From: Candidatus Iainarchaeum sp.
GTDB taxonomy: Archaea > B1Sed10-29 > WALL01
Assembly (NCBI GenBank): GCA_023129115.1
Contig: JAGMCR010000002.1
Span: forward strand, 64,001-128,000
Length of the DNA: 64,000 bases
Direction: 5' to 3'
Shown here: positions 13,454-39,109 of the stretch, piece after piece
How the letters are laid out: the number at the start of each line of letters is the position of its first letter
Position numbering within the stretch: position 1 is the stretch's first letter
Notes under the pieces: generated by a model
What the model saw: the letters and a program-made list of their open reading frames with translations, nothing else
Database searches by the model: none
Told to the model about the DNA's origin: nothing
Made by a program: the position numbers and the translations under genes

Positions 13454-13536
13454 ACAGGTCATTTCCTAGGAACTTCCGCGGAAATGAGGTGTGTGAGGGG
13501 CAAAAACCCGTGTAGGCTCTACAGCCGTACGACTTG

Positions 13537-13552
13537 TTCCCTCCCGAGGCTC
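13537..13552 (+). repeat. att-like copy 2 of tRNA-Thr 3' end (left arm A upstream)
   Basis: TTCCCTCCCGAGGCTC exact. Confidence 0.95.
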
Positions 13553-14259: not shown

Positions 14260-14286
14260 GGGGTTCAATTCCCTCCCGAGGCTCCA
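14260..14286 (+). repeat. att-like copy 3 (T-arm plus acceptor strand plus CCA)
   Basis: GGGGTTCAATTCCCTCCCGAGGCTCCA; 25 nt identical to 10921-10945. Confidence 0.97.
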
Positions 14287-14359
14287 TTACTGCGTCAAGG
14301 AGCCCCTGCTCAATTCCGCACCAGTCTATAAATAGTCCTTTGAGCAGAGCCTCGGAGGC

Positions 14360-15529
14360 ATGAGGACTGACCCTTACAACACCGGCACGAAGCTAGTGAA
14401 TTGCCTTGAGCGGGTTAGGCAATCGCTTGACCTATGTAAAGCCAACAAGCGGCTGATTCTTGAGTTCCACGCCGAGGCCGTTGCCCGTGGCTTGTCGGAA
14501 AAGCGGTGCCTTAAGTACGTGAGTACTCTCCGCAACCTCGGAACCCAACTTGGAAAGCCCTTTAACAAGGCGGACAAGCACGACATCATTCGCTTGCTCT
14601 CTTGGCTTGAGTCAACCGCGTACAAGGAGTGGACGAAGCACGACTACAAAGTCATTCTGAAATCGTTTTACAAGTGGCTGAACGGTGGAGAAGAGTATCC
14701 AAAGGTTGTTTCGTGGGTAAAAACAGGGATGAAGAACGGCAACCACATGCTGCCCGAGGAATTGCTGACCGAGGAAGACGTGCGTGCTTTAGTTGAAGCG
14801 TGTACGAACCCGCGCGACAAAGCTTTTGTCCTCACGTTGTACGAGAGTGGCTGCCGAATAAGCGAGCTGCTGACGTTGCAGGTAAAGAGCGTGAGGTTTG
14901 ACGAGCACGGCTCAATCTTGCGAGTGACTGGGAAGACCGGTGACAGGCGCGTGAGGGTGATTTCCGCGGCTCCGGCAATCGCGTTGTGGCTCGACAACCA
15001 CCCCACAAGGAAAGGGCACTTGTTTTGCTCCTTGGATGGGACGGGCATCAACTACTCGACCGCTAACGTGCTGTTAAGGAGGCTTGCTAAGAAGGCAGGC
15101 ATTACGAAGCGTGTTAATCCGCACGGTTTCCGCCACGCCCGGGCCACGTCGCTCGCGAACAAGCTCACAGAAGCCCAAATGAAGGAGTTCTTTGGTTGGG
15201 CTCAAAGTAGCGAGATGGCGGCTGTGTACGTCCACTTGTTGGGGCGGGACGTGGACGATGCCCTGCTAAGCATTTACGGCGTGAAGCCACCCGAGGACGC
15301 TCGCAAGGAGCGTTTCGTGCCTAGGGCTTGTCCCAGGTGCAAGGAGACTAATTCTCCTGCTAGTAAATACTGTTGCAGGTGTGGCAGTGCGCTCGACCTC
15401 GCAACAGCGCTAGAGGCTGATGACAAGCACAAGGAAGCCGATGCATTGATGAACGAGCTCATCAAAGACGACAGGATAAAAGCGCTTCTATTGGAGCGGT
15501 TGGTTGCCATCCAAGCAGAGAATCATTAA
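14360..15529 (+). CDS. tyrosine recombinase/integrase with C-terminal zinc ribbon
   Basis: ESGCRISE (R), GKTG (K), HGFRH (HxxR), FGW, AVYVH (Y); CPRC...CCRC. Confidence 0.95.
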   Translation: MRTDPYNTGTKLVNCLERVRQSLDLCKANKRLILEFHAEAVARGLSEKRCLKYVSTLRNLGTQLGKPFNKADKHDIIRLLSWLESTAYKEWTKHDYKVILKSFYKWLNGGEEYPKVVSWVKTGMKNGNHMLPEELLTEEDVRALVEACTNPRDKAFVLTLYESGCRISELLTLQVKSVRFDEHGSILRVTGKTGDRRVRVISAAPAIALWLDNHPTRKGHLFCSLDGTGINYSTANVLLRRLAKKAGITKRVNPHGFRHARATSLANKLTEAQMKEFFGWAQSSEMAAVYVHLLGRDVDDALLSIYGVKPPEDARKERFVPRACPRCKETNSPASKYCCRCGSALDLATALEADDKHKEADALMNELIKDDRIKALLLERLVAIQAENH

Positions 15530-15990
15530 CCTTTTCGTTTGAGGTTGTTGTATATATTGAGTGGTTCAGCGCTCAAATTCTCGCGTTCCTGGCCTTGGTT
15601 CAACTGATTTTTTAGGAATTCAATAGCTGCCAAGTAGCTCATCGGGAGCGCATCAGAAGTGTTTTCTCCCCCTGTTCAGGAATCCACATTACGAAAAAAT
15701 TCGGATTTGAGAATGTTGTATTCTCTCTTGTATTAATGGGGCAGTTTTCGGTGCGGATTCTAAGGCGTTGCTAGTGATTGACCATTGTGTAATTAGGATT
15801 CTAATTATTCAGAAAGTAGGGGTTGTGTGAAGCTCGGGGGTGAATACTGACCCTGATGAGGGTTCTGCATTACGAAAAAATTGGGATTCGGAAGTTGGCC
15901 TCCTTTTAGTGATAGAAAATGGATTTGGCCTTAGTTCACGTTTAAACATAGGTTTTTATTTGAGGACTGCTTTTTTGGCTAAGGAGCGGA

Positions 15991-16665
15991 TTGCTGATGA
16001 CTGATACTTTAGTTGATGTTTTGCTGATGCCGAACATTATGGCACTATGGGTTCCAATAATCATAGCGGCCGCCTTAGTAATCCTAATGGGATTGGTTGT
16101 CCGCCACAAAAAAGTTTCTATATCTAAGTCTAAAAAATCGCCAGATAACAAAAAAGTTGCTTTCAGATCACTTGTGATTGTTGCAGTACTATCGTTGGTA
16201 TTTTTCTTTGTTGAACCCCAGATAATAAAAGGTCTCTCCACACCACTTTTAACAATCCCATTTAGTGTTGTCCCCGCTCTTCTACTCGGATTATTTTACA
16301 CTGGACTTCAATACACTCCCATAGAAATCAAATCAGACAAGAAGAAAGCGACGCTAACAGTTGATTTTATTACTATTAATCTATGCGCACTCTTCGCATT
16401 CTTGACATTGTTTAACTTCTCTCCTTATTTCCCCGGCGCGTTCACTAGCACGAGCAACATAGCAATCATTTTCATAATTGCGTTGGTACAGACTTTTTTG
16501 TTCTCGCTGATTGTGTTCGCTTCGGAAAAAGTAAAATTCATCAGACTAAAAAATTTCCTTGGGATTCCAAATTGGCTGATATGTGTTATACTCTTTATCC
16601 TGCCTTGGTTGTTTTTGATGTATGAAAAAGCTATCCCAGTGGTGGGTGGCCTCAGGACCCTATAA
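15991..16665 (+). CDS. multi-pass membrane protein
   Basis: About 6 hydrophobic segments; start uncertain. Confidence 0.7.
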   Translation: MLMTDTLVDVLLMPNIMALWVPIIIAAALVILMGLVVRHKKVSISKSKKSPDNKKVAFRSLVIVAVLSLVFFFVEPQIIKGLSTPLLTIPFSVVPALLLGLFYTGLQYTPIEIKSDKKKATLTVDFITINLCALFAFLTLFNFSPYFPGAFTSTSNIAIIFIIALVQTFLFSLIVFASEKVKFIRLKNFLGIPNWLICVILFILPWLFLMYEKAIPVVGGLRTL

Positions 16666-16756
16666 TCAAAAATGCCTAAATCGGCATTTGTTTAAACGTT
16701 TGGACGATATGTATTTATTCTGCAAGCGCTTTTTGTTTGAGTCGGGGTGTTCTTCA

Positions 16757-19570
16757 ATGAAGCGAATGTTAGATGCATCTAAGGGCTCAGTTATAGTGGT
16801 GGTTTTTATCCTACTCTTAATTGTTGGGGTTTATGCGTTTGCTCCGTGTCCTGTTTCTCCACCAGTAAACGAAGGTGACCCACTGCCAATACCTTGCTTT
16901 GAAGAAGGTATGTGCATGGGTGGTTGTTGCTGCTATGATGGTTATCTTCTTCTCGAAAGGAATACTACTGAAGAACAGCCCAGCGCGATTACAGGTATGA
17001 TGGTAGCAACCGCACCTTTAGAAGGCAATGCAATTGAGCCCCACAAAGTGGTTAGTTTGGTTGGTTTTGAAGGCTATGACAAGAATAGGGACAAGGTTGC
17101 GGATTCCATGCAGAACGGTGTTTACTTAGAGGGCGCTACAAAAGAACTATTCACTGTTGCTTTTGACCACAAACCAACAGAAGAAGACAAAAAACTGGTT
17201 AGAGATATGGGTGGGGAGGTTGTTTACGATTTCTCATTGATTTACGCTTTAACAGTTAGGATACAACCAACCAAAATAACTGAGTATGCAGCAGCCAATC
17301 CACATGTAGTTATCGTGAGTGACCCCCGTGTAACTAGATCACTGAAGATATACCGCACAGCAAAAGTAGTTCGTGTTCGACCTCTAGTTTGGGAAACCTA
17401 TGGCTACAATGGTAGCGGGGAAGTAGTCACAGTAATGGATAGTGGCGTAGATGACTCCCACGCAGATTTACAAGGCAAAATAAAAAACTGGATGGACTGC
17501 AATCCTGCAGGATGCACTACTATTGGTCAGACACTGCATGACAACGTGGGCCATGGAACGAGTATTGCGGGGATTATTGTGGGGTCTGGGACGCAGGTGG
17601 GTGGTTCTAGTGGAGTAGCCACAGTGAACATTATGATTCATAGCCGGTTTACGGGCGAAGGCGGAGAAGTATGGGGTGGCTATTTTTCAGTGGATACTGA
17701 TGATAACACCCATTCCATTGACGGAACCCTTAATTGGGAGGCGGCTGACGGGCAGGACAATTACACAATAAAAGTAACCAACTCTACAGGGCTACCAAAC
17801 GGTGTTATTGGGGACGAAACTTCCGATTCAGACCCCTTAACCTTAACCACCAACTCATTCACAGAAACCAGTGAAATCCAGTACAAGTTTTACGTTAGCG
17901 CAGAGAGTGGCAATGCACATAACAGCACTGATGAAGCCTATTTCGCGCAAATGAGTACACCTATTGAATCGGTGGGGGATAGTTATAACCTCATGAGGGG
18001 ACTGGCACCAGGTAGCGAGCTTGTTTCCGTGAAAGTTGTGCCAGATGATAATGACATAGCTCATTTATGGACTATGAATAATGCCTATGATTGGATTGGG
18101 TCTAATTCTGAATCAGATGGCGTTAAAGTGGTTTCCATTAGTTTGGGTGGGACAACCGCTGACCCTATTGAATCAAAAGTCATTAGTAACACGATAGACA
18201 AAGGGGTTCTGCCCGTTGCAGCAACAGGTAATGATAACGGTGTTATCGACTACCCTGCTAGGTATCCTGAAGTGCTTGCTGTGGGGGCGATTGACAGCGA
18301 TGGAGACGTGGCGGATTACAGTAATTACGGGAACTCAAGTGAAGGCTCTGAAAAATGGCCCGATGTTGTTGCTCCCGGTGGGTCAAGCTGGTTCACTTAT
18401 GAAAAATACCCTGTTTTAACACTCGACACAAACGACGCTGAGTGTGTGACGAACACAGGCCTAACTACATGCGAAAGTTTCTCTGAAGAATACACTAATG
18501 ACTCCATCTATGCGTACGGTACTTCCATGGCTGTCCCCCACGTATCCGCGATAGCTGCCTTGATTGCTGAGGCGAAGGGGAGTTGGACTTACAACTCTTC
18601 TACTGACCCGTTGTGGGTAAAAATGGTTATTTCGATGACGGCTTGGGAGACCAACGAAACCAACCGTGGTTCTAAAGACATCTATGAAGGCTATGGAGTA
18701 GTCGCTGCCGACGCGGCAATCGAAGCGGTTATCTTCAACCACACGCTTGGGGACATTGAGTCAGATACTTTTGGCTCGGGATTGACTGACAAGAAGGTGT
18801 GGGCCCGCGAAGTTTCGCCGGGAGACAAGGAAATTGATTTCACGCTGGTGGTGCCAAGCGGCGCGGACTACGACCTCTACCTTTACAACAATACTCCTGA
18901 CCAGTACGGCCAGCCACAGATACTGGACAATTCGACAACTGCTGCGACCGGCGGCACAGAAAGCATTACCTACAACTTTTCGGCGAGTCAGGAAGCGTAT
19001 TTGGTGGTGAAGTGGGTCAGCGGTAACGGAGCATTTACTTTGTCTAGTGTGGAAGACAAGGACAAAATGAGTTTGATTCAGGGTTGGAACCAGTTTTCGT
19101 TCCCGAAGCTTCCGGCGAACAAGACTGTGGCCAACGTGTTCTCTTCAATTAGTGGTAGTTATGACCGGATAGATGATTACATCGCTAACAACAAGTCGTG
19201 GCGGATTTACGACGTAGCTGCAATTGGCTATTCCATGACGTTAAGCAACATTGAGGGGGGCAGGTCTTATCGCATTCATATGAACCAGGCCGACACAATT
19301 GAGTTCAGCGGCACGGACGTGGCGCCAATCAATATCTCGCTTTATGAGGGCTGGAATTGGCTCGCTTGGCCAGGCGAGACGGAGGCAATCGCCAGTGCGT
19401 TGAGCTCAATCGACGGGAGCTACAACAGAATAGATGAACTCTACGCTGGGGAGTGGGAAATTTATGATAGCTCCATCCCCGATGAGTACGACCAATCCCT
19501 GGACTACATGAAAAGAGGCAGAGGGTACGTAATTCTCATGAACTCTAACGACACACTCGAGGTGAATTAG
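16757..19570 (+). CDS. secreted S8 subtilisin-like serine protease
   Basis: VMDSG, HGT, GTSMA catalytic triad; N-terminal signal; C-terminal L..GWN repeats. Confidence 0.92.
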   Translation: MKRMLDASKGSVIVVVFILLLIVGVYAFAPCPVSPPVNEGDPLPIPCFEEGMCMGGCCCYDGYLLLERNTTEEQPSAITGMMVATAPLEGNAIEPHKVVSLVGFEGYDKNRDKVADSMQNGVYLEGATKELFTVAFDHKPTEEDKKLVRDMGGEVVYDFSLIYALTVRIQPTKITEYAAANPHVVIVSDPRVTRSLKIYRTAKVVRVRPLVWETYGYNGSGEVVTVMDSGVDDSHADLQGKIKNWMDCNPAGCTTIGQTLHDNVGHGTSIAGIIVGSGTQVGGSSGVATVNIMIHSRFTGEGGEVWGGYFSVDTDDNTHSIDGTLNWEAADGQDNYTIKVTNSTGLPNGVIGDETSDSDPLTLTTNSFTETSEIQYKFYVSAESGNAHNSTDEAYFAQMSTPIESVGDSYNLMRGLAPGSELVSVKVVPDDNDIAHLWTMNNAYDWIGSNSESDGVKVVSISLGGTTADPIESKVISNTIDKGVLPVAATGNDNGVIDYPARYPEVLAVGAIDSDGDVADYSNYGNSSEGSEKWPDVVAPGGSSWFTYEKYPVLTLDTNDAECVTNTGLTTCESFSEEYTNDSIYAYGTSMAVPHVSAIAALIAEAKGSWTYNSSTDPLWVKMVISMTAWETNETNRGSKDIYEGYGVVAADAAIEAVIFNHTLGDIESDTFGSGLTDKKVWAREVSPGDKEIDFTLVVPSGADYDLYLYNNTPDQYGQPQILDNSTTAATGGTESITYNFSASQEAYLVVKWVSGNGAFTLSSVEDKDKMSLIQGWNQFSFPKLPANKTVANVFSSISGSYDRIDDYIANNKSWRIYDVAAIGYSMTLSNIEGGRSYRIHMNQADTIEFSGTDVAPINISLYEGWNWLAWPGETEAIASALSSIDGSYNRIDELYAGEWEIYDSSIPDEYDQSLDYMKRGRGYVILMNSNDTLEVN

Positions 19571-19597
19571 AGGGGGATACTTGACCTGGTCAAGCTG

Positions 19598-19611
19598 TCC
19601 TCCCGGGGCTC
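19598..19611 (+). repeat. att-like copy 4 (left arm B, right arm A)
   Basis: TCCTCCCGGGGCTC followed by the same 28 nt that follow the tRNA. Confidence 0.92.
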
Positions 19612-19690
19612 TGACCCTACGGTAGTAGAGCCTGCACCAAACTATTTATAGAACTTTGAGCAGAAGCCCTTGCGATGGGCAGGATAAACC

Positions 19691-20260
19691 TCATTCAAAA
19701 TGGTGTTTATGCTTTTCGAGTTTTTTCATGCGTTTCTTGTTTAGGTGAATTGTTTCTTTGGTTGCGCGGCTTTGGCGCTCGACTTCGAACGCGGTTATTC
19801 CAAGGTCGTGGGCCTCACACGCTGTTTTGATTGCACTGGCTGCTTGGACTATGTCTTCTCTTCGTGTTGACGGGTTTTGTTTTTTGTCTTCATTAAGTAT
19901 ATCAATTGCGAGGTCAATTGTTTTGTTTGGCAGCCCTAACCTCTTGCCTTGTTTTTGGATGATTTCTTGGGGAGTTGGAGTAGCTATGCCCGTAGCCTTG
20001 CGGAAGTCCTCGATGTCTTCTAGGCTTAGATTAATGGAGTTATCGGCGGCTCTGAAGTTGTACCTGCCAATTTCCATCCCCTGGTTTTGGCCCGCAACCC
20101 AACTTATTAAGCTCGCTTTTTTCACTGGCTCCGCATTGTACGCAATAACCTCTTTTTTCTTCCTGAGCCTCTCGACTTCTTTTACGAGTGCATCTTCTGC
20201 CTCGCCGGGAAAAACACGCAGCCGCCTTACTTTTTCCAAGATTTGGTCCATTTTAGACAT
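19691..20260 (-). CDS. hypothetical protein with TFB cyclin-repeat-like C-terminus
   Basis: LGLPNKTIDLAIDIL...AASAIKTAC...ITAFEV...TKETI. Confidence 0.55.
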   Translation of the reverse strand: MSKMDQILEKVRRLRVFPGEAEDALVKEVERLRKKKEVIAYNAEPVKKASLISWVAGQNQGMEIGRYNFRAADNSINLSLEDIEDFRKATGIATPTPQEIIQKQGKRLGLPNKTIDLAIDILNEDKKQNPSTRREDIVQAASAIKTACEAHDLGITAFEVERQSRATKETIHLNKKRMKKLEKHKHHFE

Positions 20261-20322
20261 AACAACAAATGACTCAGTTCTAAAATAAAAACCTTTTTAT
20301 CCCTCTTAGAGTTATGTGCAAA

Positions 20323-20495
20323 GCCGTGGGCTAACCTTAAAAATGGTTGATGAGTGTAGTTACGCAGTATACACCGCGGGATGGTATCCATGATAGACAG
20401 GTCATTTCCTAGGAAGTTCCGCGGAAATGAGGTGTGTGAGGGGCAAAAAGCGGTGCAGGCTCTATAGCCGTACGAGCTGTTCCCTCCCGAGGCTC
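20323..20495 (+). repeat. ~170 bp duplicate of 13380-13552, including att copy 5 (20480-20495)
   Basis: Near-identical on direct comparison. Confidence 0.95.
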
Positions 20496-20661
20496 AGCGT
20501 CCTGGGGGGCGCAGCCCCCCACGAAGCCCATGACGTTGACACAAGTCAACGTCCAGTCCACGGGAAGAGTCCCCTCAGTAATACTGTACTAGCTGCTGCC
20601 GGGCGGCCTTGCGCCGCCCTCGTCTAACGTGCCGCCTGAGTTTCAGGCGCTCCCGAGGCTC
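20496..20661 (+). mobile_element. gene-free hairpin mini-cassette C1 with att copy 6 (20650-20661)
   Basis: AGCGTCCTGGGGGGCGCAGCCCCCC ... CTAACGTGCCGCCTGAGTTTCAGGCG CTCCCGAGGCTC. Confidence 0.75.
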
Positions 20662-20843
20662 AGCGTCCTGGGGGGCGCAGCCCCCCACTACCCCGGGAAG
20701 CGCCCCCCCAGGTGAGTGGGTAAGAGCTCGCTTCCGCTCGCGGTTTTTGTCTCTGGGAATCGCAGATTCCCAAGCCTAACGTGCTGTACCGTGAATCCCA
20801 ACGGATTTGCGGTTGTCCTGAGTTTCAGGCGCTCCCGAGGCTC
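20662..20843 (+). mobile_element. gene-free hairpin mini-cassette C2 with att copy 7 (20832-20843)
   Basis: Same head and tail as C1, different middle. Confidence 0.75.
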
Positions 20844-21101
20844 TGACCCTACGGTAGCAGAGCCCGCTTCACCCCAAGCATGAGGCCGGACTTGCGCATA
20901 AGCTTCCTAGGGGTTTGTGGGGTTTGGGCCAATAAATTTATCAGGTTGTGGCATTCCTCGCTGAAGTATTGTCCCGCTGTCACTAAAAAACCCGTCCATT
21001 CCCTACAATAACGCTTAAAATATTGCCGTGGGGCGCATTCAGTCACGTTTATAAACTATAACATGTTAGATATATCGGTACCGATATTAAAAGGTTTTGT
21101 T

Positions 21102-21599
21102 ATGAACTTGTTTGCTAGGGGCTTGCTGAAAATTTATGTCTTGTACATGGCCAAACAGGGTTCCATTTCAGGCAGTGATGTTGCCAAGAGCATAAGCGCT
21201 GCCACAGACGGGCGGTGGAAGCCGAGCTTTGGCTCGATTTACCCGCTGCTGGGGAGGTTTGAGGAAGATGGCCTGCTGTGCCAGGAGGCTAGGAAGGGAA
21301 AGCAGGTCTTTTACTCACTCACCAAGAAGGGTGTGAAAGAGTTCGAGAGGCAGAGGGAAAAATACATTGCCGAGTACGAGGACAACCTCGGGACGCTGTT
21401 CCCCCTGGTCTTCCAGCTGGCGCAGTTCGAGGCCGACAAAGAGCTGCAAGACGCCGTCACGAACCTGAACCAAGTGTTCGCGAAATACAAGAAATACTTG
21501 TTCAACCTGGAGCTAAACGAAAAAGTGGAGAAAAGAAAGCGCATAATCAAGGACTTGTCCGCCACCCTTTCGGACCACATGAGCAAGCTGGAGAAGTGA
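21102..21599 (+). CDS. PadR family transcriptional regulator
   Basis: PSFGSIYPLLGRFEEDGL...YSLTKKG. Confidence 0.9.
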   Translation: MNLFARGLLKIYVLYMAKQGSISGSDVAKSISAATDGRWKPSFGSIYPLLGRFEEDGLLCQEARKGKQVFYSLTKKGVKEFERQREKYIAEYEDNLGTLFPLVFQLAQFEADKELQDAVTNLNQVFAKYKKYLFNLELNEKVEKRKRIIKDLSATLSDHMSKLEK

Positions 21600-21603
21600 T
21601 GTT

Positions 21604-22926
21604 ATGGAAAAATACGACGCAATTGTTGTGGGGTGTGGCATAAGCGGGCTGCTCGCGGGCCTTGCGCTTGCCAAGGAAGGAAAGAGTGTGCTAATGCTCG
21701 AGAAGGAAGACAAAGTTGGTGGCGCGTGCAGGTCTTACGACGTTGACGGCTTCGTGGTCGACACCGGGCCGCATGTGATTACTGGGCGGGGGAATGGGCC
21801 AACCCAATTGCTGATAGACAAGTATTTTGACGTGGTGCCGAAGTTCATTGAGAGCAGAAAATATTTCCTGCGGTTTGACGGCAAGTTATACGCTTTCCCT
21901 TGGACGATTCCGGCTTGGCTATCGTTCCCACCGTTCTCAGTCGAAGACAGGCTCATCATTGTCCAGGTGATGTTCAAGTTGTTGGCAGACTATGCCTCTG
22001 GCAAAGGCTTGGGGGATAAAGTGGTGTCTGATTACACGGCGGGCCATGAGCTCTCGGGAAGGGCGCTGCAGTTCATTGATTGCATGTGCCTGTTTTTGAC
22101 GGGCGTTTGCATGGAGGAAACGCCCGTGAGCCGAATCCTTTCCGGGGGAAGGAGCAAAAACAAGACAAAAGCGGAAAAAATAAAAGAGATTTTGGTTGAA
22201 AACGGGAAGACCCATTACTATCCGCGTGGGGGGATCCAAACTATTGTTAACTCTGTATTGCAGTCCCTCCCGAAGAACGCCGGGATTCACAAGAGCGAAG
22301 AAGCAACCAAAATCGTGGTCAGTGGCGGGCGTGTTTCTGGTGTCGCCACGGACAAAGGCGAGTACGCCACGAAGGTAGTGGTTTACGCTGGACCGAACAA
22401 GCTCCTTCCCGGCTTGGTGGAACTGCCCCAAGAGTACATCCAAAAATTCAGGGGCTTGAAGCAAGCGAGGACGCTGACGCTGTGGCTCGGGCTAAATAAA
22501 AAATACTTCGCAGAAGTTGGGACAGAGCTTTGGACCGAAACAAAAAAGCCTTGCTGGGCCGTCCCAACATCCAATTTTGATTCTGCACTCGCCCCGACGG
22601 GGAAGCACTTGGTGGGCTTCGGCTTCGTGCTCGCGGAAGATGAGCAGGTGACCGACGACAACATTGACGACTATGTCAAAGTAGTCGAGGAAGTGTTCCC
22701 GGGCATAAGGGAACACATCGAGATGACCCATTACCAAGTGCTGGTTGCCGAGCAGGCAGCCAACGCAAAAGACAATTTCTTCAGCGGGGTCAAGCTGCCG
22801 GTCGATGGGCTGTACGCGGTCGGCACTGACGTCGACAGGCGGAGCATGGGCGTGACGAGGGCCGCGTACTCCGTAGTCTCGTTGATTGAAGCCCTAAAAC
22901 AAGGCGGTTTTGTTACGAAGGTGTGA
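21604..22926 (+). CDS. FAD-dependent oxidoreductase, phytoene desaturase-like superfamily
   Basis: VVGCGISGL, GGACRS, FVVDTGPH, YPRGG. Confidence 0.85.
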   Translation: MEKYDAIVVGCGISGLLAGLALAKEGKSVLMLEKEDKVGGACRSYDVDGFVVDTGPHVITGRGNGPTQLLIDKYFDVVPKFIESRKYFLRFDGKLYAFPWTIPAWLSFPPFSVEDRLIIVQVMFKLLADYASGKGLGDKVVSDYTAGHELSGRALQFIDCMCLFLTGVCMEETPVSRILSGGRSKNKTKAEKIKEILVENGKTHYYPRGGIQTIVNSVLQSLPKNAGIHKSEEATKIVVSGGRVSGVATDKGEYATKVVVYAGPNKLLPGLVELPQEYIQKFRGLKQARTLTLWLGLNKKYFAEVGTELWTETKKPCWAVPTSNFDSALAPTGKHLVGFGFVLAEDEQVTDDNIDDYVKVVEEVFPGIREHIEMTHYQVLVAEQAANAKDNFFSGVKLPVDGLYAVGTDVDRRSMGVTRAAYSVVSLIEALKQGGFVTKV

Positions 22927-22930
22927 AAAA

Positions 22931-24028
22931 ATGAAGTACAAAAAAATAGTTTTCCCGCGGGACGGTGCCGCCCATGACAACGTTATTGAGTGGTGGTACT
23001 TTAACGGGCACCTGAAGGACGGGAATGGCAATGGGTATGCCTTCATGGACTGCCTGTTCAAGGCAAAGCCCAAAGAAGTGAAACTTCCTTTTTTGAAAAA
23101 GATTCCACTCAAAAACGCTTATTTCGCCCACTCCCTTTTGTCTGACATCAAGGACAACGTGTTTTATTCAAGCGTGCAGCCCCTGAGCATACTCTCGAGG
23201 GACAGCTTTTCAAAGCCCTTGTTTTTCGTGAATTACTCCCACCCCTCTTTGGGCGGCTACCTGAATTACGAAATCGAGGAGATTGACGGGTTCAAGTATA
23301 GAATCAAGTCCGAGTTCTTTGACTTGACCTTGAGCTCGACCAAGAAGCCGCTGCTTGAGGGCGGGCGCGGGTTCATTGACTTGAATTCAAAGCAAACGTT
23401 TTACTACTCGCTGACAAACCTCGAGACAGAGGGATACGTCACTGTCAACGGCAAGCGAATCAAGGTAAAAGGCAAGTCCTGGATGGACCACCAGTGGGCC
23501 GACGTCCCGTACTCGAAGGACAAGTGGAGCTGGTTTTCAATCCAATTGGACAACAACACGGAAATGGTTTGCTTTGAGTATGGCGACAAGAAAAAGAAGA
23601 CTTATCTCGCGAGCATTTCGTACGCGAACGGAAGGGTCGCCCACGCCAGTGACTTATCACTAACCCCATTAGGCCAGGTATGGGAGAGCAAGAGAACTGG
23701 CGCCAAGTATCCCCTTTCATGGAGGATTCAAGTCCCGTCAAAAAGAATTGACCTCGTGGTGAGCCCCTTAATGAAAGAACAGGAAATAATTTTTGGGCCA
23801 ATCAACTACTGGGAGGGGCCGTTAAAAGTAACGGGAAAAGTGAACAACAAAAAAGTGGCTGGAAAAGGATTTTCAGAGCTTGTCGGCTACCCGACAACAA
23901 AGTCTTTTGTTGAGTTTTATGAGCCAGAACTAAGGAAAATCGAGAAAATAGTTAAAAGAGACTTAAGCGAATGGGTGGGTCATACGATTAGTGGAAAGCC
24001 GGGGTTTGCCGCGGATCGCAGGAAGTGA
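22931..24028 (+). CDS. CrtC/AttH lipocalin-like protein
   Basis: EWWYFNGHL, YYS, WMDHQW, WSWFSIQL, YWEG. Confidence 0.85.
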   Translation: MKYKKIVFPRDGAAHDNVIEWWYFNGHLKDGNGNGYAFMDCLFKAKPKEVKLPFLKKIPLKNAYFAHSLLSDIKDNVFYSSVQPLSILSRDSFSKPLFFVNYSHPSLGGYLNYEIEEIDGFKYRIKSEFFDLTLSSTKKPLLEGGRGFIDLNSKQTFYYSLTNLETEGYVTVNGKRIKVKGKSWMDHQWADVPYSKDKWSWFSIQLDNNTEMVCFEYGDKKKKTYLASISYANGRVAHASDLSLTPLGQVWESKRTGAKYPLSWRIQVPSKRIDLVVSPLMKEQEIIFGPINYWEGPLKVTGKVNNKKVAGKGFSELVGYPTTKSFVEFYEPELRKIEKIVKRDLSEWVGHTISGKPGFAADRRK

Positions 24029-24034
24029 GGTTGT

Positions 24035-24868
24035 TTGGGCTTTGGTGGTTTCTTGCTTCACTTGCGGCCGCTGTCGTGGCCACTTGTCGCACTGCAAGTC
24101 TTGACGGGGTTCGTGCTCGCCGGCGGCAACACTGTCTCTCTTGAGGTCTTGTTAGGTTTCTTTGTCATCGTTGTCTGTATGAACGGGGGAACACTGGCGT
24201 TCAACTCTTACTTCGACAGGGACGGTGGAAATGTGGGGTGGCTGGACAACCCACCCAAAACAACTAAGCAAACATATTACTTGTCGCTCGCGCTGATGGT
24301 ATTTGGTGTGCTCGCCGCCTTGCTGGTGTCCCATGAATTTTTCTATTTGGCTTCCGCATCTTTCGTTGTTAGCGTTGCTTATTCACATCCTTGGTTCAGG
24401 CTCAAGTCGGTGCCACTGGCAGACGCCATTTGTAGTGGCGTGGGTTACGGGGTGCTCATGTTTCTTGGGGGTTGGGTACTCGCGTCACCAGTCTTGACTG
24501 CCAAGGCCGGGGTCGTGTGCGTGGGAATGTTCCTGGCGTTCATGGCTGGGGTTCCATTGACCCAAATATATCAAATGCGTGAAGACAAAAAGAGGGGTGA
24601 TAGGACCACTGCATTGGCCTTGGGACCGGACAAATCAAAGTGGATGTTTTACTTCTTTGGCACGCTTTCTGTAGCCGTGTTGTTGTTTGCTGTTATGGAG
24701 GGGTTCTTGGGGAAACTTGCGCTACTGGCGGGCGTGCCTTTATTCTGGCTGGCGTTACAAGTACGGAACATCAAATCATTCAAGCACAAGCAAAAAGTTT
24801 ATGAGGCATACGTCGTGGTTGTTGTTGTGGATGTGGTTATCATTCTTTCAGAACTCGTTCCAGTGTAA
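24035..24868 (+). CDS. UbiA family prenyltransferase
   Basis: NSYFDRD, YSHP.RLK, EDKKRGDRT; many TM helices. Confidence 0.85.
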   Translation: MGFGGFLLHLRPLSWPLVALQVLTGFVLAGGNTVSLEVLLGFFVIVVCMNGGTLAFNSYFDRDGGNVGWLDNPPKTTKQTYYLSLALMVFGVLAALLVSHEFFYLASASFVVSVAYSHPWFRLKSVPLADAICSGVGYGVLMFLGGWVLASPVLTAKAGVVCVGMFLAFMAGVPLTQIYQMREDKKRGDRTTALALGPDKSKWMFYFFGTLSVAVLLFAVMEGFLGKLALLAGVPLFWLALQVRNIKSFKHKQKVYEAYVVVVVVDVVIILSELVPV

Positions 24869-24952
24869 CACACCCCCTTTCCGCGGAAGCTTCCCCGGAA
24901 ATGACTTGGGTGTGGCTGATTTTGGGCGCAGGCTCTAGAGCCATACGAGCTG

Positions 24953-24967
24953 TTCTCCCCCGAGCTC
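24953..24967 (+). repeat. degenerate att copy 8 (left arm A upstream)
   Basis: GCAGGCTCTAGAGCCATACGAGCTG then TTCTCCCCCGAGCTC. Confidence 0.8.
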
Positions 24968-25002
24968 TTTTATACTTCTTTTGACTAAAATTGTTTACTC
25001 TT

Positions 25003-26058
25003 ATGCATACACAAGAGCTTGTCACACGGCTTGAGGATGCGGAGAAAGCCGTTTCTGGGTACGGGGGGCAAAGGCTGTTGCTAATCAGCCAGTACTACGG
25101 CGCCCAAATGGATTTCGTCGATAGGATAGAGGCGGGCGTTGAGAGGGGCAAGAGGCTGATGAGTGCGGACATTGTTGTCAGAAGAAAGCATGCCATGAGC
25201 CAGCAGAAGATTTTCAAGAGGATGGCGCAGTTTTTCAAGCAAGTCGATGGCTCATACAAAAAAGGGGACATCAAGGACAAGGAGGGCCGTGTGTTCGCCC
25301 GCGCCTATGACAAGGCGGTCCACGGCCATTTTGCCAAGGTACGGGAGATTCTTTCAGAGGTAGAGGGCATGGCCGTGGTATACACGGAATTTGTTGGGCT
25401 TGAGGAAGAAGCAAAAAGGCAAAAGAAAAAGTTGGGGAAAAGGAAGGCGTCCATCCATGCATTGCTCGAGGAAGCGGGCTCGGTAAAGCCGCTTGATGGC
25501 GATTACGTGAAAAAGCATGGGGAAGTGCTTCGGAGCCTGGAGAAAGCCAAGGGGCTTAGGGCGGAGTACATACAAAAAATTCGTGGCAAGAGTGTTATGG
25601 AGTACGTGGCAATGCTGAAAAACAAGGATTTGGTCAAGGTGGGCTTTCCAGGCGCGGACCCTGCTGACATCACCAAATTCTTGAATGCTTATCCAGAGCT
25701 CTCAAAGGCAACGCCGGAGAAACTGCTTGAATATCGTTCCTGGACAGACGGGAAGCTAAAGCACACAATCCCGGAGACCAAGAGGTTCAGGAGCATGATG
25801 CAGGAGTATGGCTCTTGGCTGGAACGCCTTGAGCACCTTGAGTCATTGGGGTTCATGGTTGTTAGGAACGTGGAGGACGCGAAGAGGCTCGCGCCATTAT
25901 TCAGGGGGACCGAGGCCGGTGGCGTGCTGTCAAGCCTTAGCGGGCTTGGGGATTACTGGATGGCGCCCCCCAAAGGCGCACCAGTCAGGGACACACCAAA
26001 GCTAAAAAAAGAGCTTTCCGAGATAGGCAGGGAACTGGCGCTTCTGGAAGGCGTTTAG
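25003..26058 (+). CDS. hypothetical coiled-coil protein
   Basis: ~350 aa charged helical ORF. Confidence 0.7.
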   Translation: MHTQELVTRLEDAEKAVSGYGGQRLLLISQYYGAQMDFVDRIEAGVERGKRLMSADIVVRRKHAMSQQKIFKRMAQFFKQVDGSYKKGDIKDKEGRVFARAYDKAVHGHFAKVREILSEVEGMAVVYTEFVGLEEEAKRQKKKLGKRKASIHALLEEAGSVKPLDGDYVKKHGEVLRSLEKAKGLRAEYIQKIRGKSVMEYVAMLKNKDLVKVGFPGADPADITKFLNAYPELSKATPEKLLEYRSWTDGKLKHTIPETKRFRSMMQEYGSWLERLEHLESLGFMVVRNVEDAKRLAPLFRGTEAGGVLSSLSGLGDYWMAPPKGAPVRDTPKLKKELSEIGRELALLEGV

Positions 26059-26062
26059 GCCC

Positions 26063-26078
26063 AATCCCTCCCGGGGCT
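26063..26078 (+). repeat. att copy 9
   Basis: AATCCCTCCCGGGGCT. Confidence 0.8.
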
Positions 26079-26130
26079 TTCCGGGGGAGGTGGGCAACGC
26101 AAAGCTTAAATATTAGAAATGCGTACTATA

Positions 26131-26243
26131 GGGCGCTGTAGGTTTGAGAGGTTGTGAACCGCAAGGCTTGCAACGAATTATGTCCCGAAAGTGGCATAAG
26201 GGCCGTGTAGAAAATAGCTCTTAAACCTGTAGCACTTCAGCGC
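26131..26243 (+). ncRNA. candidate structured small RNA
   Basis: TATA-like CTTAAATA ~25 nt upstream, long closing stem, GCAA and GAAA tetraloop hairpins, T-rich tail. Confidence 0.55.
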
Positions 26244-26334
26244 TTTCTGTTGTTTCAACTGTGTATGGACCTTAGTTCTCACGCTTCATTTCCGCGGAAC
26301 TTCCTAGCCGCAGGATTTATAGCCGTACGAGCTG

Positions 26335-26350
26335 TTCCCTCCCGAGGCTC
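26335..26350 (+). repeat. att copy 10 (left arm A, right arm B)
   Basis: TTCCCTCCCGAGGCTC exact. Confidence 0.95.
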
Positions 26351-26462
26351 TCAGACCACGTCAAGGAGCCCCCGCTCAATTCCGCACCGGTTTACATGCC
26401 TGTTTATAAAGGTTTACGATATATCGTACACCTTTATATAATAGTTCAAACACCGATTAAGC

Positions 26463-27653
26463 ATGGAGCTAGGACTCTGGAAGGTTGTGGAGCAATGGAA
26501 TTACTGGAAGGAAAAGCCAGAAACCGGTATTCCCAGGGACGTGACCGCAGAGGCAATGGAGTTCTTTAAAGGCAGCGAAGCGCTTTATTTTTTTGGCCCG
26601 CGGCGAGCCGGGAAAACATTTGTTTGCATGCAGCTGCTGTCAAAGCTGTCAAAGAAGCACGGGAAGAAATCTTGCTTGTACGTGAACTTTGAGGAGCCTG
26701 CTCTTGCCGGGAACCTGCGCACGGAATTCATAGAAGAAATCGTTGTAGAATTCAAAAAAGTGCATGGGAAGTGGCCTCGCTTCGTTTTCCTTGACGAAGT
26801 CCAGAACGTTAAAGGCTGGGAGCGCTGGGTCCGCGGAGCAGTGGACAGGAAACGGTTCAAGGTTTTTGTCACTGGATCTTCTGCGAAACTCTTGAGTTCA
26901 GAGTTCTCCACTTCTCTTGGGGGGAGGGGGATAGGCTTTCTGGTATTGCCGTTTTCCTTTAGCGAGTTTAGGCGTGCAAAACCAAAAGCGGGGCTCAAGG
27001 AGTACCTTGAGATTGGGGGCTATCCAGCGGTTGTACTGGAAAAAAACGAGCGCAAGCGCAGGAGGATGCTGGAAGAGTATTTTGACACTGCCATCATGAG
27101 GGATATAGTGGCTAGGCACGACGTGAGAGACGTGCCAACATTAAGAACGCTTGCCGTTTACTTACTGACAAATTCTGGAAAGCGCTTCAGCTACAATAAG
27201 CTTCGGGCAATGACACATCTCTCTTTTGACGCGCTTAGGCAGTACCTGTCATATCTTGAGGACGCATTAGTGGTTTTCCAAGTACCGTATTTTTCGTACT
27301 CCATGAAAAAAGCGCTTGAAAAGCCCCGCAAGTACTATGCTTATGACCTTGGGCTGCAGGGAGCTGTATCAAAGTCGTTTAGTCCGGACTGGGGAAGAAA
27401 AGCCGAGAACGCGGTTGCAATAGAGCTGGTTCGGCGAAGAAAAGAAATTCAATACTACTCAAACAAGTTTGAAGTCGATTTCATAATAAAAGAAGGAACA
27501 AAGATAAAGCCGGTAAATGTCTGCTACTCAGAGAAACCACCGCAAAGGGAAACAAAAAGCCTTGAAGAGTTTTCCAAAAAACACAAGTCAGAACCCCCTC
27601 TGTTGCTTTGCGGGAAGGATAACATCTTGAAGTGGCTGAAAACAAACCAATGA
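26463..27653 (+). CDS. AAA_14/DUF4143 ATPase
   Basis: GPRRAGKT, FLDEVQ, VTGSS, GGYP, EVDF. Confidence 0.92.
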   Translation: MELGLWKVVEQWNYWKEKPETGIPRDVTAEAMEFFKGSEALYFFGPRRAGKTFVCMQLLSKLSKKHGKKSCLYVNFEEPALAGNLRTEFIEEIVVEFKKVHGKWPRFVFLDEVQNVKGWERWVRGAVDRKRFKVFVTGSSAKLLSSEFSTSLGGRGIGFLVLPFSFSEFRRAKPKAGLKEYLEIGGYPAVVLEKNERKRRRMLEEYFDTAIMRDIVARHDVRDVPTLRTLAVYLLTNSGKRFSYNKLRAMTHLSFDALRQYLSYLEDALVVFQVPYFSYSMKKALEKPRKYYAYDLGLQGAVSKSFSPDWGRKAENAVAIELVRRRKEIQYYSNKFEVDFIIKEGTKIKPVNVCYSEKPPQRETKSLEEFSKKHKSEPPLLLCGKDNILKWLKTNQ

Positions 27654-27681
27654 AAAAATGCTCCTTGACGTGGCCAAGCCG

Positions 27682-27695
27682 CCCTCCCGGGGCTC
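27682..27695 (+). repeat. att copy 11 (left arm B, C head downstream)
   Basis: CCCTCCCGGGGCTC. Confidence 0.9.
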
Positions 27696-28623: not shown

Positions 28624-28854
28624 AATCCCTCCCAAGGCTCCATCTCAGCGTCCTTAGGGGGAGCGCAGCTCCCCCTGGCCCAGACGAACAACAACCGAAC
28701 ATCCTGTGGGGGATGTCCGGTATCCTGCGGGATGTACGTCATACCCTGGGAAGCCTCACCCCCTCAGTAATCCTGTACTAATCTGTCTCTTGGGGCCTTG
28801 TGCCCCAAAGCCTAACGTGCCAGCTGAGTTTCAGCTGAATCCCTCCCGAGGCTC
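28624..28854 (+). mobile_element. gene-free mini-cassette C3 between att copies 12 (28624-28642) and 13 (28838-28854)
   Basis: AATCCCTCCCAAGGCTCCA ... GGGGGAGCGCAGCTCCCCC ... CTAACGTGCCAGCTGAGTTTCAGCTG AATCCCTCCCGAGGCTC. Confidence 0.78.
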
Positions 28855-35198: not shown

Positions 35199-35216
35199 TT
35201 CCCTCCCGAGGCTCCA
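35199..35216 (+). repeat. att copy 18 (left arm A, right arm B)
   Basis: TTCCCTCCCGAGGCTCCA. Confidence 0.95.
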
Positions 35217-35309
35217 TTACCACGTCAAGGAGCCTCTGCCTTTTTTGCATGAGGGAAGTTTATATATGCTCACTGTGGCAAGAAGATACATAATAGAGGA
35301 GGATTTAGT

Positions 35310-35924
35310 TTGTTTGATTTGATCGATTTTTTAGAGGAACACTGGAGAGCGGTTGGCATTGCTTTAATAATCTTCCTTATATCCTGTATCTTCACGCTTG
35401 CCTCAATCTTAATTGGACAGATGGAACCGGTAGTGGATATTCTAATAACAAATGGTTCTCCACATTTCATTAGTTTTGTTACTTTTTCATCGTCAATGAC
35501 CAACATCTTAACTACTATGGGCTGGCTAATTGCTTTTTGTTGGATGGCCGCTGTTTACTTGAATGAATTGGCGATATGGAACTATGGAAAAGCAAACGAA
35601 GAAAAGTTTTATTTGGGTCCGGGAGATGATAACGAACATTTTGACAAGCATGGAGAGAAGTATCACCCGAAGAAAGAAAAGAATCAGGAAATGACAATAA
35701 TGGCTGATGGATTACTCGAATTCAAAAGAATCCTGCTCGCTGTAGTTTATGTGGGCATAATCCTATTTGCGATAGGAACAATTTTTAGTTTGGATAGTTT
35801 AACAATGTTCTATTTGGGGCATATCAGCTTTTCGTTTGTTAGTTTATTTGTTATGATGGCGTTCAGCATTTTTAAATTATACCCTAAGATTGCACCATCC
35901 CACAGAACCGATGGAGAGGGTTAA
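35310..35924 (+). CDS. hypothetical membrane protein
   Basis: About 4 TM segments, AT-rich DNA. Confidence 0.65.
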   Translation: MFDLIDFLEEHWRAVGIALIIFLISCIFTLASILIGQMEPVVDILITNGSPHFISFVTFSSSMTNILTTMGWLIAFCWMAAVYLNELAIWNYGKANEEKFYLGPGDDNEHFDKHGEKYHPKKEKNQEMTIMADGLLEFKRILLAVVYVGIILFAIGTIFSLDSLTMFYLGHISFSFVSLFVMMAFSIFKLYPKIAPSHRTDGEG

Positions 35925-35941
35925 GTCGCAGTTGGGATAAT

Positions 35942-37372
35942 ATGAAAAACACAAAGAAAGCATCAAAAACAGCGCATAAGAATCAACGCGATTCATTTGT
36001 TAGATCCCAAAATGAACATTGCTTTCTGAAAGATAAACAAAAAATAAAGTATCATTCCTTTATTCTTCTGGAGATAGTTCCTCTGGAAAGAATCCAAAAA
36101 CTTATCCATGGGCTTGACAAGCTGTATGCTAAAGCTTCAGTGGCATCTGAATCTCAATTGAGATATAAGGACATTCTTTCAACCAGTCATCTAAAACTCT
36201 TCGAGAGAAATACAATAAATTTACCGTATGTAGTTACAAAAAAACTCAAAGGCAAAATTTTGTCTAATTGTGTATTTCACGATCTCGGAGATCATATTCG
36301 GCACATCCATATCTCAATTTACAAAGTTTTGCCATCTACCGTGATTCTTCAGATTCAAGTACATCTAAATGATAAACTAAGCAAAAAGATAAACGATGTT
36401 ATTTATAGCTACCACAAAGAGATTAGGAAACCAGTTGAGACACCTAGGGGCAAATACACCCAGATATATGGCCCCCCTCATCAGAAAGAGAATCAAATTT
36501 ATCAAGTTAGAAAAGACTTGCACAAGGAAGCTATTGATTTCTTAAAAAAGTATTTCACAGGATATTTTTTTGAATTGTCTGATGAGAGCATCTCGGTAGT
36601 ACCCTCAATCGATTTGTTTTCTTTGGATTATCCTAACGAAGATGGCCAAATTTTGGATTGGGGCGATAAAAACCATGGATTCTTTCAGTGTTTCAGCACA
36701 TATATCGGGCCGTGGGATTCTTTTAAGTACAAAAACTACCTGTTTTGTCTTGAATCCAAAAGAAACGCCAAGTTTGAGAATTATCTGATATTTGCCAACA
36801 GAAAGACCACATCGAATAATATGTATCCCGATATTGATGCTTCCATTGAAGAAACCCTTAATTTCTGTTCCTTTGATTTAGTGGCCATTAACAGGTGGAT
36901 TAAAGTTCAAGAAGAGATGGTAGGAACGCTTAATTCAACCGTGTCGAGGGAAATATCTCAGATACAACAAAATAGATTTAGTAAAGCTATAGAAACCAGA
37001 AAATCTGTTCTTAAGAGTATTTTTCCCTTTGAACGCTTTGCAACAGAGTATGTAAGATACAAAATGATTCCTGATAAATTTGAATTTAAAAGCCTTAAAG
37101 ATGAGAGAGCCCCCGACAAACAAATTGACTTGTTCAATGGATTGAAAGAAGGAATCACTGCGAAAATTACGGAACTACATGAATTGATTAATGGATTTAC
37201 AAGACAGCATGAAAGTATTATGGCCTTAAAAAATCTGGAATTCAGTAAGAATATGCAAAACCTTATTATCATATTGACAATAGCTCTTATAGTGTTAACG
37301 ATAATCCAAATAGGCATAGGGGCATATGGATTAAAAACACCTGGTTTAATAGTGAGATTTCTCTTCGGATGA
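35942..37372 (+). CDS. hypothetical protein with C-terminal TM helix
   Basis: 476 aa ORF in AT-rich DNA. Confidence 0.7.
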   Translation: MKNTKKASKTAHKNQRDSFVRSQNEHCFLKDKQKIKYHSFILLEIVPLERIQKLIHGLDKLYAKASVASESQLRYKDILSTSHLKLFERNTINLPYVVTKKLKGKILSNCVFHDLGDHIRHIHISIYKVLPSTVILQIQVHLNDKLSKKINDVIYSYHKEIRKPVETPRGKYTQIYGPPHQKENQIYQVRKDLHKEAIDFLKKYFTGYFFELSDESISVVPSIDLFSLDYPNEDGQILDWGDKNHGFFQCFSTYIGPWDSFKYKNYLFCLESKRNAKFENYLIFANRKTTSNNMYPDIDASIEETLNFCSFDLVAINRWIKVQEEMVGTLNSTVSREISQIQQNRFSKAIETRKSVLKSIFPFERFATEYVRYKMIPDKFEFKSLKDERAPDKQIDLFNGLKEGITAKITELHELINGFTRQHESIMALKNLEFSKNMQNLIIILTIALIVLTIIQIGIGAYGLKTPGLIVRFLFG

Positions 37373-37416
37373 TAACTCGGGGGTTATCCTCTAATCCACC
37401 TACCCGTCTGAGCTTT

Positions 37417-37538
37417 ATTCCGCACCAGTCTATAAATAGTCCTTTGAGCAGAGCCTCGGGGGCATGAGGACCGACCCTTACAATACCGGTACGAAGCTAG
37501 TGAATTGCCTTGAGCGGGTTAGGGGGTGTAGAGCCAAC
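37417..37538 (+). pseudogene. 5' remnant of the integrase with its promoter
   Basis: Near-identical to the integrase upstream region and first 20 codons (MRTDPYNTGTKLVNCLERVR, ATG 37464). Confidence 0.9.
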
Positions 37539-37615
37539 TTTATTAATAGAGGCGTGCATAAAGCCAGTAGAGGGCAATTTATTTATATAGCCGGTTCATT
37601 TGTATGGCTTAGAGG

Positions 37616-39027: not shown

Positions 39028-39054
39028 ACGGGGACACTTGACCTAGTCGAGCCG

Positions 39055-39067: not shown

Positions 39068-39109
39068 TTTTATATTTTAACCGCGTAACTGCTTGAGCGG
39101 GGTGCGTTT

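Follow-up and report, generated by a model that had tools for sequence, protein, structure and literature searches.

Can a short unit of genomic DNA that is bounded by tRNA-derived repeats carry an RNA gene as its only cargo? This question is raised by a 271-bp (base pair) unit in a contig of Candidatus Iainarchaeum sp. (GenBank assembly GCA_023129115.1, contig JAGMCR010000002.1, positions 64,001 to 128,000 of the forward strand). The whole stretch of 64,000 nucleotides (nt) that was analysed is referred to as the window; all plain coordinates are positions within it and + denotes its forward strand. The window holds an array of units separated by copies of the 3' end of a tRNA-Thr gene, here called cores. 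In a preliminary description, made from the sequence alone, the unit between cores 9 and 10 was put forward as a cassette whose only cargo is a candidate structured non-coding RNA. We find that this RNA very probably belongs to a real, conserved family of structured RNAs that has homologs in a second archaeal phylum. Overall, the locus is probably best explained as a stand-alone gene of a new RNA family, acquired horizontally as the sole cargo of a tRNA-bounded unit.

Three covariance models were used to describe the RNA. R1 was built from the window sequence alone with the structure drawn in the preliminary description, R2 from three sequences, and R3 from ten sequences, including the window copy, with four helices. 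P1 denotes the closing stem and H1, H2 and H3 the hairpins that it encloses. The RNA and its presumed signals are located as follows:

26099-26105 and 26106-26113, + strand: BRE-like (B recognition element) GCAAAGC and TATA-like TTAAATAT, both read from the sequence and situated 18-25 nt ahead of the first model position; their placement is repeated in homolog loci
26131-26246, + strand: structured RNA, a full covariance-model match over 116 positions (R1, 148.2 bits; R3, 101.8 bits, E 1.4e-23)
26135-26150, + strand: 5' strand of P1, pairing with 26218-26233 (16 bp, three of them G-U)
26218-26233, + strand: 3' strand of P1
26151-26174, + strand: hairpin H1 (9 bp, one A/C mismatch position), with a GCAA tetraloop at 26161-26164
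26178-26199, + strand: hairpin H2 (8 bp), with a GAAA tetraloop at 26187-26190
26203-26217, + strand: site of the family hairpin H3 (4 bp, 7-nt loop), where the window copy has C-G, C·A (a mismatch), G-U and U-A
26234-26262, + strand: conserved ACUU directly after P1, followed by a T-rich stretch (26244-26262); presumed archaeal termination region

No protein-coding gene accounts for this locus. The earlier impression that no convincing open reading frame (ORF) lies between cores 9 and 10 agrees with our finding that no ORF of at least 35 amino acids (aa) is situated wholly within 26079-26334. A 63-aa TTG frame (26250-26441) runs across core 10, and neither this frame nor two shorter ones have a Pfam match at E ≤ 1. 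Across the ten RNA copies, not a single frame is open throughout and the positions of stop codons are unconserved.

The + strand of the locus folds better than its complement. A 121-nt segment reaches -41.2 kcal/mol on the + strand (z -2.43; 4 of 200 shuffled sequences fold as well) versus -27.5 kcal/mol on the - strand (z -0.58; 54 of 200), the poor fold of the latter being due to the six G-U pairs and the one A·C mismatch of the + strand. For the 100-nt core of the RNA, the z score is -4.45 and none of 200 shuffles is as good. All 33 pairs of P1, H1 and H2 form in the window copy (16/16, 9/9 and 8/8, respectively), and three of the four H3 pairs are able to form, the remaining one being C·A. 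When a 99-nt core is evaluated, the three-helix fold of the preliminary description has -34.2 kcal/mol and the minimum free energy (MFE) structure -35.8 kcal/mol. As these values are nearly equal, energy alone leaves the structure undecided, and the choice was settled by homologs.

Such homologs were found in another archaeal phylum. Among 150 wider relatives, R1 matched two over its full length (58.1 and 57.6 bits, E ~1e-11), both of them Candidatus Undinarchaeota (17 genomes), and it detected neither a second copy in the genome that contains the window nor any copy in 30 other genomes of the window's own phylum. R2 places the RNA in 7 of the 17 Undinarchaeota genomes, spread over five of the nine families. 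Two genomes of one genus (G125 and G104) carry tandem pairs with the copies 7 nt apart, which brings the total to nine homologous copies; the tandem copies (L019 1390-1618 and L020 1390-1617) are 71-77% identical within a pair. R3 recovers the same seven Undinarchaeota genomes, with 0 of 30 matches among the other genomes of the window's phylum and 0 of 134 among archaeal genomes outside the Undinarchaeota set. Across four other archaeal phyla, R3 matched 0/70, 0/17, 0/1 and 0/151 genomes (373 other archaeal genomes, including the 134). Many of the searched genomes are incomplete and the larger phyla were sampled, hence absence is to be read as not found among the genomes searched, about 750 in all.

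At the nucleotide level, BLASTN of 26100-26300 returned only the query itself from its own genome and just promoter-like matches of ~20 nt, with no homolog, from 60 relatives. An exact 30-mer scan of the genome_contigs collection yielded 0 matches. The sole contig that an exact 22-mer scan of metagenome_contigs retrieved (L012) has only hairpin 2 in common with the RNA and no R3 match at E ≤ 1, and is thus regarded as a chance match. A degenerate signature scan of genome_contigs recovered three already known loci; its only other match, a Buttiauxella contig (L026), is not matched by the model and was discarded.

The substitutions that separate the ten sequences preserve the base pairs. In the model-fitted alignment, 91.7% of the cells of the three drawn helices are paired and 28 of the 33 pairs have changed on both sides (P1 12/16, H1 8/9, H2 8/8). 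With H3 as fourth helix, 92.1% of 367 cells hold standard pairs and 30 of the 37 pairs have changed on both sides. None of 500 shuffled controls for the four-helix alignment reaches any of five measures, and only 37-45% of the cells are paired when the partners are slid by 1-3 columns. The covariation proceeds through G-U intermediates, which, together with the folding energies, bears out the assignment of the RNA to the + strand. Moreover, each of the nine homologs folds, on its own, into the same four-way junction as its MFE structure (z -4.3 to -6.8; 0 of 200 shuffles as good). In this junction, a closing stem of ~16 bp is joined to a hairpin capped by a GNRA or UUCG tetraloop, to a second hairpin of 7 bp that mostly has a GAAA loop, and to H3, which adjoins P1 with 4-5 bp and a 6-7-nt A-rich loop and is part of the MFE structure in all nine. 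H2 is found in the MFE structure of all ten sequences, the window copy included. The outer stem with its G-U pairs and the GCAA and GAAA hairpins are present as drawn in the preliminary description and are kept by compensatory changes in the homologs. The drawn helices of its three-helix structure therefore stand, whereas a stretch that it took as single-stranded holds the fourth, short hairpin in the family.

The family does not coincide with a known one. At gathering thresholds, the only match of Rfam 15 in the window is the tRNA at 10872, and no family reaches its gathering score over the candidate RNA. LOOT RNA (RF03000), the best permissive match, was rejected: it scores 17.9 bits against a gathering threshold of 46.4 (E 0.46) in an alignment that takes in the promoter. 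LOOT and the window RNA share several hairpins with GNRA-type loops, and the cmscan alignment spans the full LOOT model, but none of the seven homolog loci matches LOOT at E ≤ 1 and the window RNA is not a member. At this same cutoff, the homolog loci match no Rfam family except one tRNA. The genome has its own archaeal signal recognition particle (SRP) RNA (102.9 bits) and 5S rRNA (84.3 bits) on other contigs, consistent with the earlier impression that the RNA is not recognisable as either of these or as a tRNA.

Two further classes of RNA resemble the family in outline. Y RNAs and the bacterial YrlA-type RNAs measure ~100 nt; a long closing stem joins their two ends, the upper part is branched or looped, and the 3' end is U-rich. 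In some bacteria, Y-type RNA genes occur in tandem. The likeness concerns the ~100-nt size, the long closing stem, the branched upper part, the U-rich 3' end and the tandem genes. The Rfam Y RNA models match neither the window nor the homolog loci, and the TROVE/Ro domain (PF05731) was found in none of five RNA-bearing genomes (82-89% complete), with a positive control matched in two named genomes; a Y RNA identity was rejected. The yybP-ykoY (Mn2+) and NiCo riboswitches are ~100-nt four-way junctions located beside metal transporter genes, including those of P-type ATPases. The family shares the four-way junction, the length of ~100 nt and the metal transporter neighbours with them, but lacks an Rfam match, has a plain 16-bp P1 helix without conserved internal loops, and is inconsistently oriented towards the transporter genes. 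A narrow literature search on non-coding RNA in Undinarchaeota retrieved no description of this RNA. Judged by its sequences, this family absent from Rfam 15 is a new structured RNA family of about 105-125 nt.

Promoter-like and terminator-like signals accompany the RNA. The preliminary description had placed a BRE/TATA motif ~25 nt before the RNA, and the upstream sequences of the homologs bear this out: on inspection, 8 of 8 independent loci have the box at the same distance, between about -33 and -18 relative to the first model position. In both tandem pairs, the second copy lacks a promoter of its own; a promoter before the first copy only suggests that a single precursor is cut into two RNAs. 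After P1, the conserved ACUU is followed by a U-rich tail in every locus, and the T-rich tail noted earlier in the window lies at 26244-26262. Promoter and tail fit a short, independently transcribed RNA that would begin at the base of P1.

In Undinarchaeota, the RNA is found among ordinary chromosomal genes, such as a glycine cleavage operon, L11/Spt5/FtsZ, Cbf5 and RtcB/archease. These loci display no integrase among 53 ORFs scanned (22, plus 31 of the 110 listed in the second set) and no tRNA-tail repeats. A gene for a P-type cation ATPase lies within ~1 kb of the RNA in three of the seven loci, from three families and with otherwise differing neighbours:

L027, 5270-10891: RNA gene beside P-type cation ATPase genes
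L028, 8001-11843: RNA gene beside P-type cation ATPase genes
L030, 8001-10915: RNA gene beside P-type cation ATPase genes

A cation transporter is nearby in five of the seven loci when a Na/Ca exchanger, a Na/H exchanger and VIT1 are counted as well. The relative orientation varies, with same-strand, divergent (one locus) and convergent (three loci) arrangements. In one locus, RNA and ATPase gene share a strand, and 72 nt separate the end of the RNA from the gene downstream; in G083, the RNA is flanked by two full-length ATPase genes and opposite in strand to each of them; in G160, G125 and G104, the next gene is convergent to the RNA. Overall, three of the seven loci have a same-strand gene at most ~300 nt downstream and the other four have an opposite-strand or convergent gene. 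This inconsistent orientation implies that the RNA is not a classical leader. A homolog of the P-type cation ATPase occurs in the host genome on another contig (G000:C1:7887-10511, L042); it is 43% identical to an Undinarchaeota one and contains one in-frame TGA.

How did this copy come to lie in the window? The host genome comprises 1.25 Mb in 19 contigs and is 88.6% complete (relatives' genomes measure 0.3-1.3 Mb). The unit and the parts of the array that define it are located as follows:

10872-10945, + strand: tRNA-Thr(CGU) gene (Rfam tRNA, 70.7 bits; ARAGORN), the 3' end of which is the repeated core
14360-15529, + strand: tyrosine recombinase gene (Pfam Phage_integrase, E 5.2e-24), directly after core 14271
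24991-26058: DUF7118 gene; core 9 begins 8 nt past its stop codon
26066-26079, + strand: core 9, a 12/14 match to the tRNA-Thr 3' end
26066-26090, + strand: core 9 with its downstream complement (the next 11 nt), an imperfect hairpin read from the sequence
26283-26336, + strand: degenerate copy of the right end of 'family A' elements, a conserved segment ahead of the core (repeat families D7/D10)
26337-26350, + strand: core 10, a 14/14 match to the tRNA-Thr 3' end
26463-27653: AAA_14/DUF4143 ATPase gene, cargo of the unit after core 10

The flanking cores are real repeats: 16 copies of the 14-mer that ends the tRNA-Thr gene, each with at most two mismatches, are present between 10932 and 40110, always on the + strand, against 0.46 occurrences expected. 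The repeated site comprises the last 14-16 nt of the tRNA gene and is always a direct repeat; core 14271 keeps a longer piece of the tRNA. The unit from core 9 to core 10 measures 271 bp and contains the RNA as sole cargo. Other units carry unrelated cargo, namely an isochorismatase, a subtilase, a TFIIB-like protein, a carotenoid-type gene set, DUF7118, the AAA_14/DUF4143 ATPase, an EEP-family protein, a prolyl oligopeptidase and AbiEii. Terminal inverted repeats stand beside the cores of units 26337-27682 (perfect, 14/14), 10932-13539 (17/20) and 19598-20482 (20/22). No inverted repeat connects the two ends of the RNA unit (score 11, compared with 20-30 in four neighbouring units). The earlier designation as a cassette thus holds in so far as the unit is bounded by two tRNA-derived cores, and fails for a complete element, as only a degenerate right repeat is present and the left inverted repeat is lacking; the unit is a partial one rather than a complete mobile element.

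Among sequencing runs, the stretch was found in three DNA runs of one study and in no RNA run. Contigs from these three DNA runs, one of which may be the source of the assembly, bridge the end of the DUF7118 gene, core 9 and the RNA with 0 differences. These read-derived contigs break at core 10, itself a repeat, and the absence of variants within the RNA among the contigs of the three runs means that they add no covariation.

The array is what successive site-specific integrations at a tRNA gene would leave, and the tyrosine recombinase encoded at 14360-15529 is likely the enzyme that built it. It resembles the tycheposons of Prochlorococcus, for which the source describes a full-length tRNA at the proximal end, elements and remnants parted by partial tRNA copies, a tyrosine recombinase, and cargo that builds up through successive integrations (bioRxiv 10.1101/2020.12.28.424599). 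The two have in common the complete tRNA that marks one end, the partial copies of it that separate the units, and a tyrosine recombinase. The window array differs in its archaeal host and is far more tightly packed, its 16 cores falling within 29 kb and its shortest units measuring 166-271 bp. No RNA-only unit is described for tycheposons in the portion of the source used, and the likeness is one of layout; the recombinase of the window matches only the general Phage_integrase Pfam family.

A second parallel is offered by ORF-less integron cassettes, which can encode a regulatory RNA or a promoter, such as sRNA-Xcc1 of Xanthomonas campestris (PMC8876359). As in that description, a protein-gene-free unit within a site-specifically recombined array carries a small RNA gene or promoter. 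In bacterial integrons, each cassette terminates in an attC site and is mobilised by IntI, an integrase with a characteristic extra domain that is encoded next to attI and Pc, whereas the site in the window is the 3' end of tRNA-Thr. The attC site that closes a cassette at its 3' end forms an imperfect palindrome of R''/L''/L'/R' boxes; the units of the window carry inverted repeats beside the site, and the host is an archaeon. The window RNA differs further in that it brings a BRE/TATA promoter along and that covariation supports its homologs in another phylum. Given a recombination site at a tRNA 3' end and units with their own inverted repeats, an identity as integron cassette was rejected. 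ORF-less RNA cassettes were already known from bacterial integrons; what is new here is a structured RNA family as the RNA-only cargo of an archaeal tRNA-att (attachment site) array.

On these data, the following course of events can be proposed. Transcription would proceed from the RNA's own archaeal BRE/TATA promoter (26099-26113), start at or just before the base of P1 and end in the U-rich stretch after the conserved ACUU. The transcript would fold into a four-way junction in which P1 encloses two hairpins capped by tetraloops and a short third one with an A-rich loop of 7 nt. The family is resident in the chromosomes of Undinarchaeota, another small-genome archaeal phylum, often beside cation transporter genes, and the window copy was most likely acquired horizontally, into an array built by tRNA-targeting integration through a tyrosine recombinase. 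Since promoter, RNA and terminator move together, the RNA could be made wherever the unit lands, where it would most likely act in trans as a protein-binding or regulatory RNA. The presence in five of nine families of one phylum, in chromosomes, versus one of 31 genomes of the other, in a mobile array, makes import the simplest reading.

Several observations weigh against a functional, imported RNA gene of this structure. Regarding the structure, the covariation alignment was fitted to the model structure and is hence biased towards it. Because such an alignment leans to its model, two independent checks were made, namely a MAFFT alignment, not fitted to the model, analysed with RNAalifold, and the single-sequence folds given above. 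The former finds P1 and H1 again, with both partners changed in 17 pairs, misses H2 and sets H3 in a different register, so that H2 and H3 rest on the model-fitted alignment and the single-sequence folds. The window copy itself is imperfect: it bears the C·A mismatch in H3, and its MFE structure favours another inner fold (-35.8 kcal/mol) over the family fold (-34.2 kcal/mol). As for expression, we infer transcription and the 5' and 3' ends of the RNA from sequence signals, and the terminator is weak, with T runs of just 2-3 T in the window tail. Regarding the origin, the direction of transfer rests on the phyletic pattern, and sampling beyond the two phyla is partial. The signature scan of the whole collection finds just three of the seven known loci, which limits its sensitivity. 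The window copy is 47-59% identical to any sampled homolog; consequently, the transfer was not recent and no sampled genome is the donor. A poorly resolved tree of the RNAs places it with the copy of G146 at a support of only 70/76. Finally, the RNA unit is incomplete, without a left inverted repeat and with a degenerate right end, and may be a remnant. Whether the window copy is both expressed and useful in this host is, in our estimation, evenly balanced.

Some of these points favour an explanation that we consider somewhat unlikely, in which the RNA is a true family member but a decaying hitch-hiker, captured with a fragment of a mobile element and neither usefully expressed nor selected. 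The H3 mismatch, the departure of the MFE structure from the family fold, the missing left terminal inverted repeat and the degenerate right-end repeat all agree with such decay; three other short ORF-less units show that gene-free remnants are common in the array, and the copy is the sole one among the 31 genomes of the phylum. Against decay, the pairs of P1, H1 and H2 are all intact despite a sequence difference of 41-53% from every homolog, although that divergence may predate the transfer and have arisen in the donor lineage; the BRE/TATA box is preserved and has the spacing typical of the family, and the sequence is identical in the contigs of three runs (0 differences). A cis-acting leader is improbable; in this reading, the RNA would control transporter genes in the manner of a riboswitch that responds to metals or cations, and the window copy would be an orphan separated from its gene. 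The P-type cation ATPase genes within ~1 kb in three of the seven Undinarchaeota loci (three families), the RNA that ends 72 nt upstream of a same-strand ATPase gene, and the cation transporters close by in five of seven loci with otherwise different surroundings would suit a leader. The RNA of G083 is nevertheless opposite in strand to both ATPase genes, the next gene is convergent in G160, G125 and G104, every locus has its own promoter and a U-rich end right after P1, no gene stands between the RNA and the next core in the window, and no Rfam riboswitch family matches.

The array is rich in hairpin-forming repeats and recombination sites, which could suggest that the locus acts as DNA, for instance as a palindromic recombination site, a protein-binding site or a miniature transposon. 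This is very improbable given the poor fold of the - strand, which the six G-U pairs and the single A·C mismatch of the + strand bring about, the covariation via G-U intermediates, the conserved promoter and U-rich tail, the single copy in this genome, and the ordinary chromosomal settings of the homologs, with no integrase in 53 ORFs and no tRNA-tail repeats. Scarcely credible, and the least probable of all, is a very small protein gene such as the 26-aa TTG frame at 26144-26224: this frame exists on the + strand, but none is open in all ten copies, stop positions differ, the substitutions preserve base pairs and not codons, and there is no Pfam match. We therefore retain the stand-alone, horizontally acquired RNA gene as the probable explanation.

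The best functional lead for such a gene is a trans-acting RNA linked to cation transport. The connection with cation homeostasis is a lead only, and a doubtful one at that. The DUF7118 protein encoded upstream was rejected as a partner, since a search with the window protein as query did not find it in any of five RNA-bearing Undinarchaeota genomes. We also consider it unlikely, to much the same degree, that the RNA is the working part of a system of unknown nature (a cation-transport sensor or regulator, a small ribonucleoprotein or a ribozyme) and forms a self-contained 'RNA cassette' that spreads between archaeal phyla without a dedicated protein gene. If this were true, the tRNA-att arrays of tiny archaea would exchange functional RNA genes besides protein genes.

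The family provides a covariation-backed, ~115-nt, four-helix target for biochemistry in archaea with very small genomes, and the repeated adjacency to P-type cation ATPases in the donor-like phylum offers a lead to its function that can be tested. Its presence in 7 of 17 genomes of one phylum versus 1 of 31 in the other, with that copy in a mobile array, points to transfer of an RNA gene between phyla, of which few examples are known to us. The dense tRNA-bounded arrays of such archaea can hold RNA-only units, in parallel to ORF-less integron cassettes with other recombination sites.

Further observations concern the array as a whole. Based on their terminal inverted repeats, the units fall into two families, with 10932-13539, 19598-20482 and probably 20830-24953 in family A and 14271-19598, 26337-27682 and 35201-39055 in family B; the recombinase gene is only present in unit 14271-19598. 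The right ends of two family-A units (13380-13552 and 20323-20495) are 93% identical over 173 nt with different cargo (repeat family D8). A 112-nt segment comprising the recombinase promoter and gene start (14308-14419) recurs 23 kb downstream at 37412-37523 with 95% identity (repeat family D12) and may be the remnant of a second recombinase-bearing element. The three further short ORF-less units (20482-20648, 20648-20830 and 28627-28841; 166-214 bp) hold a G+C-rich hairpin repeat (family D5) that is also found at 27683, 50625 and 51867. At the far end, a housekeeping-type gene for a GMP synthase C-terminal domain and PP-loop protein (39110-40045) is located between two core-like repeats (39055-40097); either the array reaches round a host gene, or its last 'cores' did not arise by integration. 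Such arrays are not confined to this genome, as G004, a member of another genus, has partial copies of its tRNA-Thr 3' part at distances of 8.6 and 10 kb past the complete gene (C12:6994-17009, L037 and L040). Upstream of the array, the - strand of 3721-8406 contains long ORFs (505 and 1037 aa) filled with TGC/GCA-rich repeats, whose periods are 78-84 nt and ~160 nt; they look like a repetitive, cysteine-rich secreted or surface protein.

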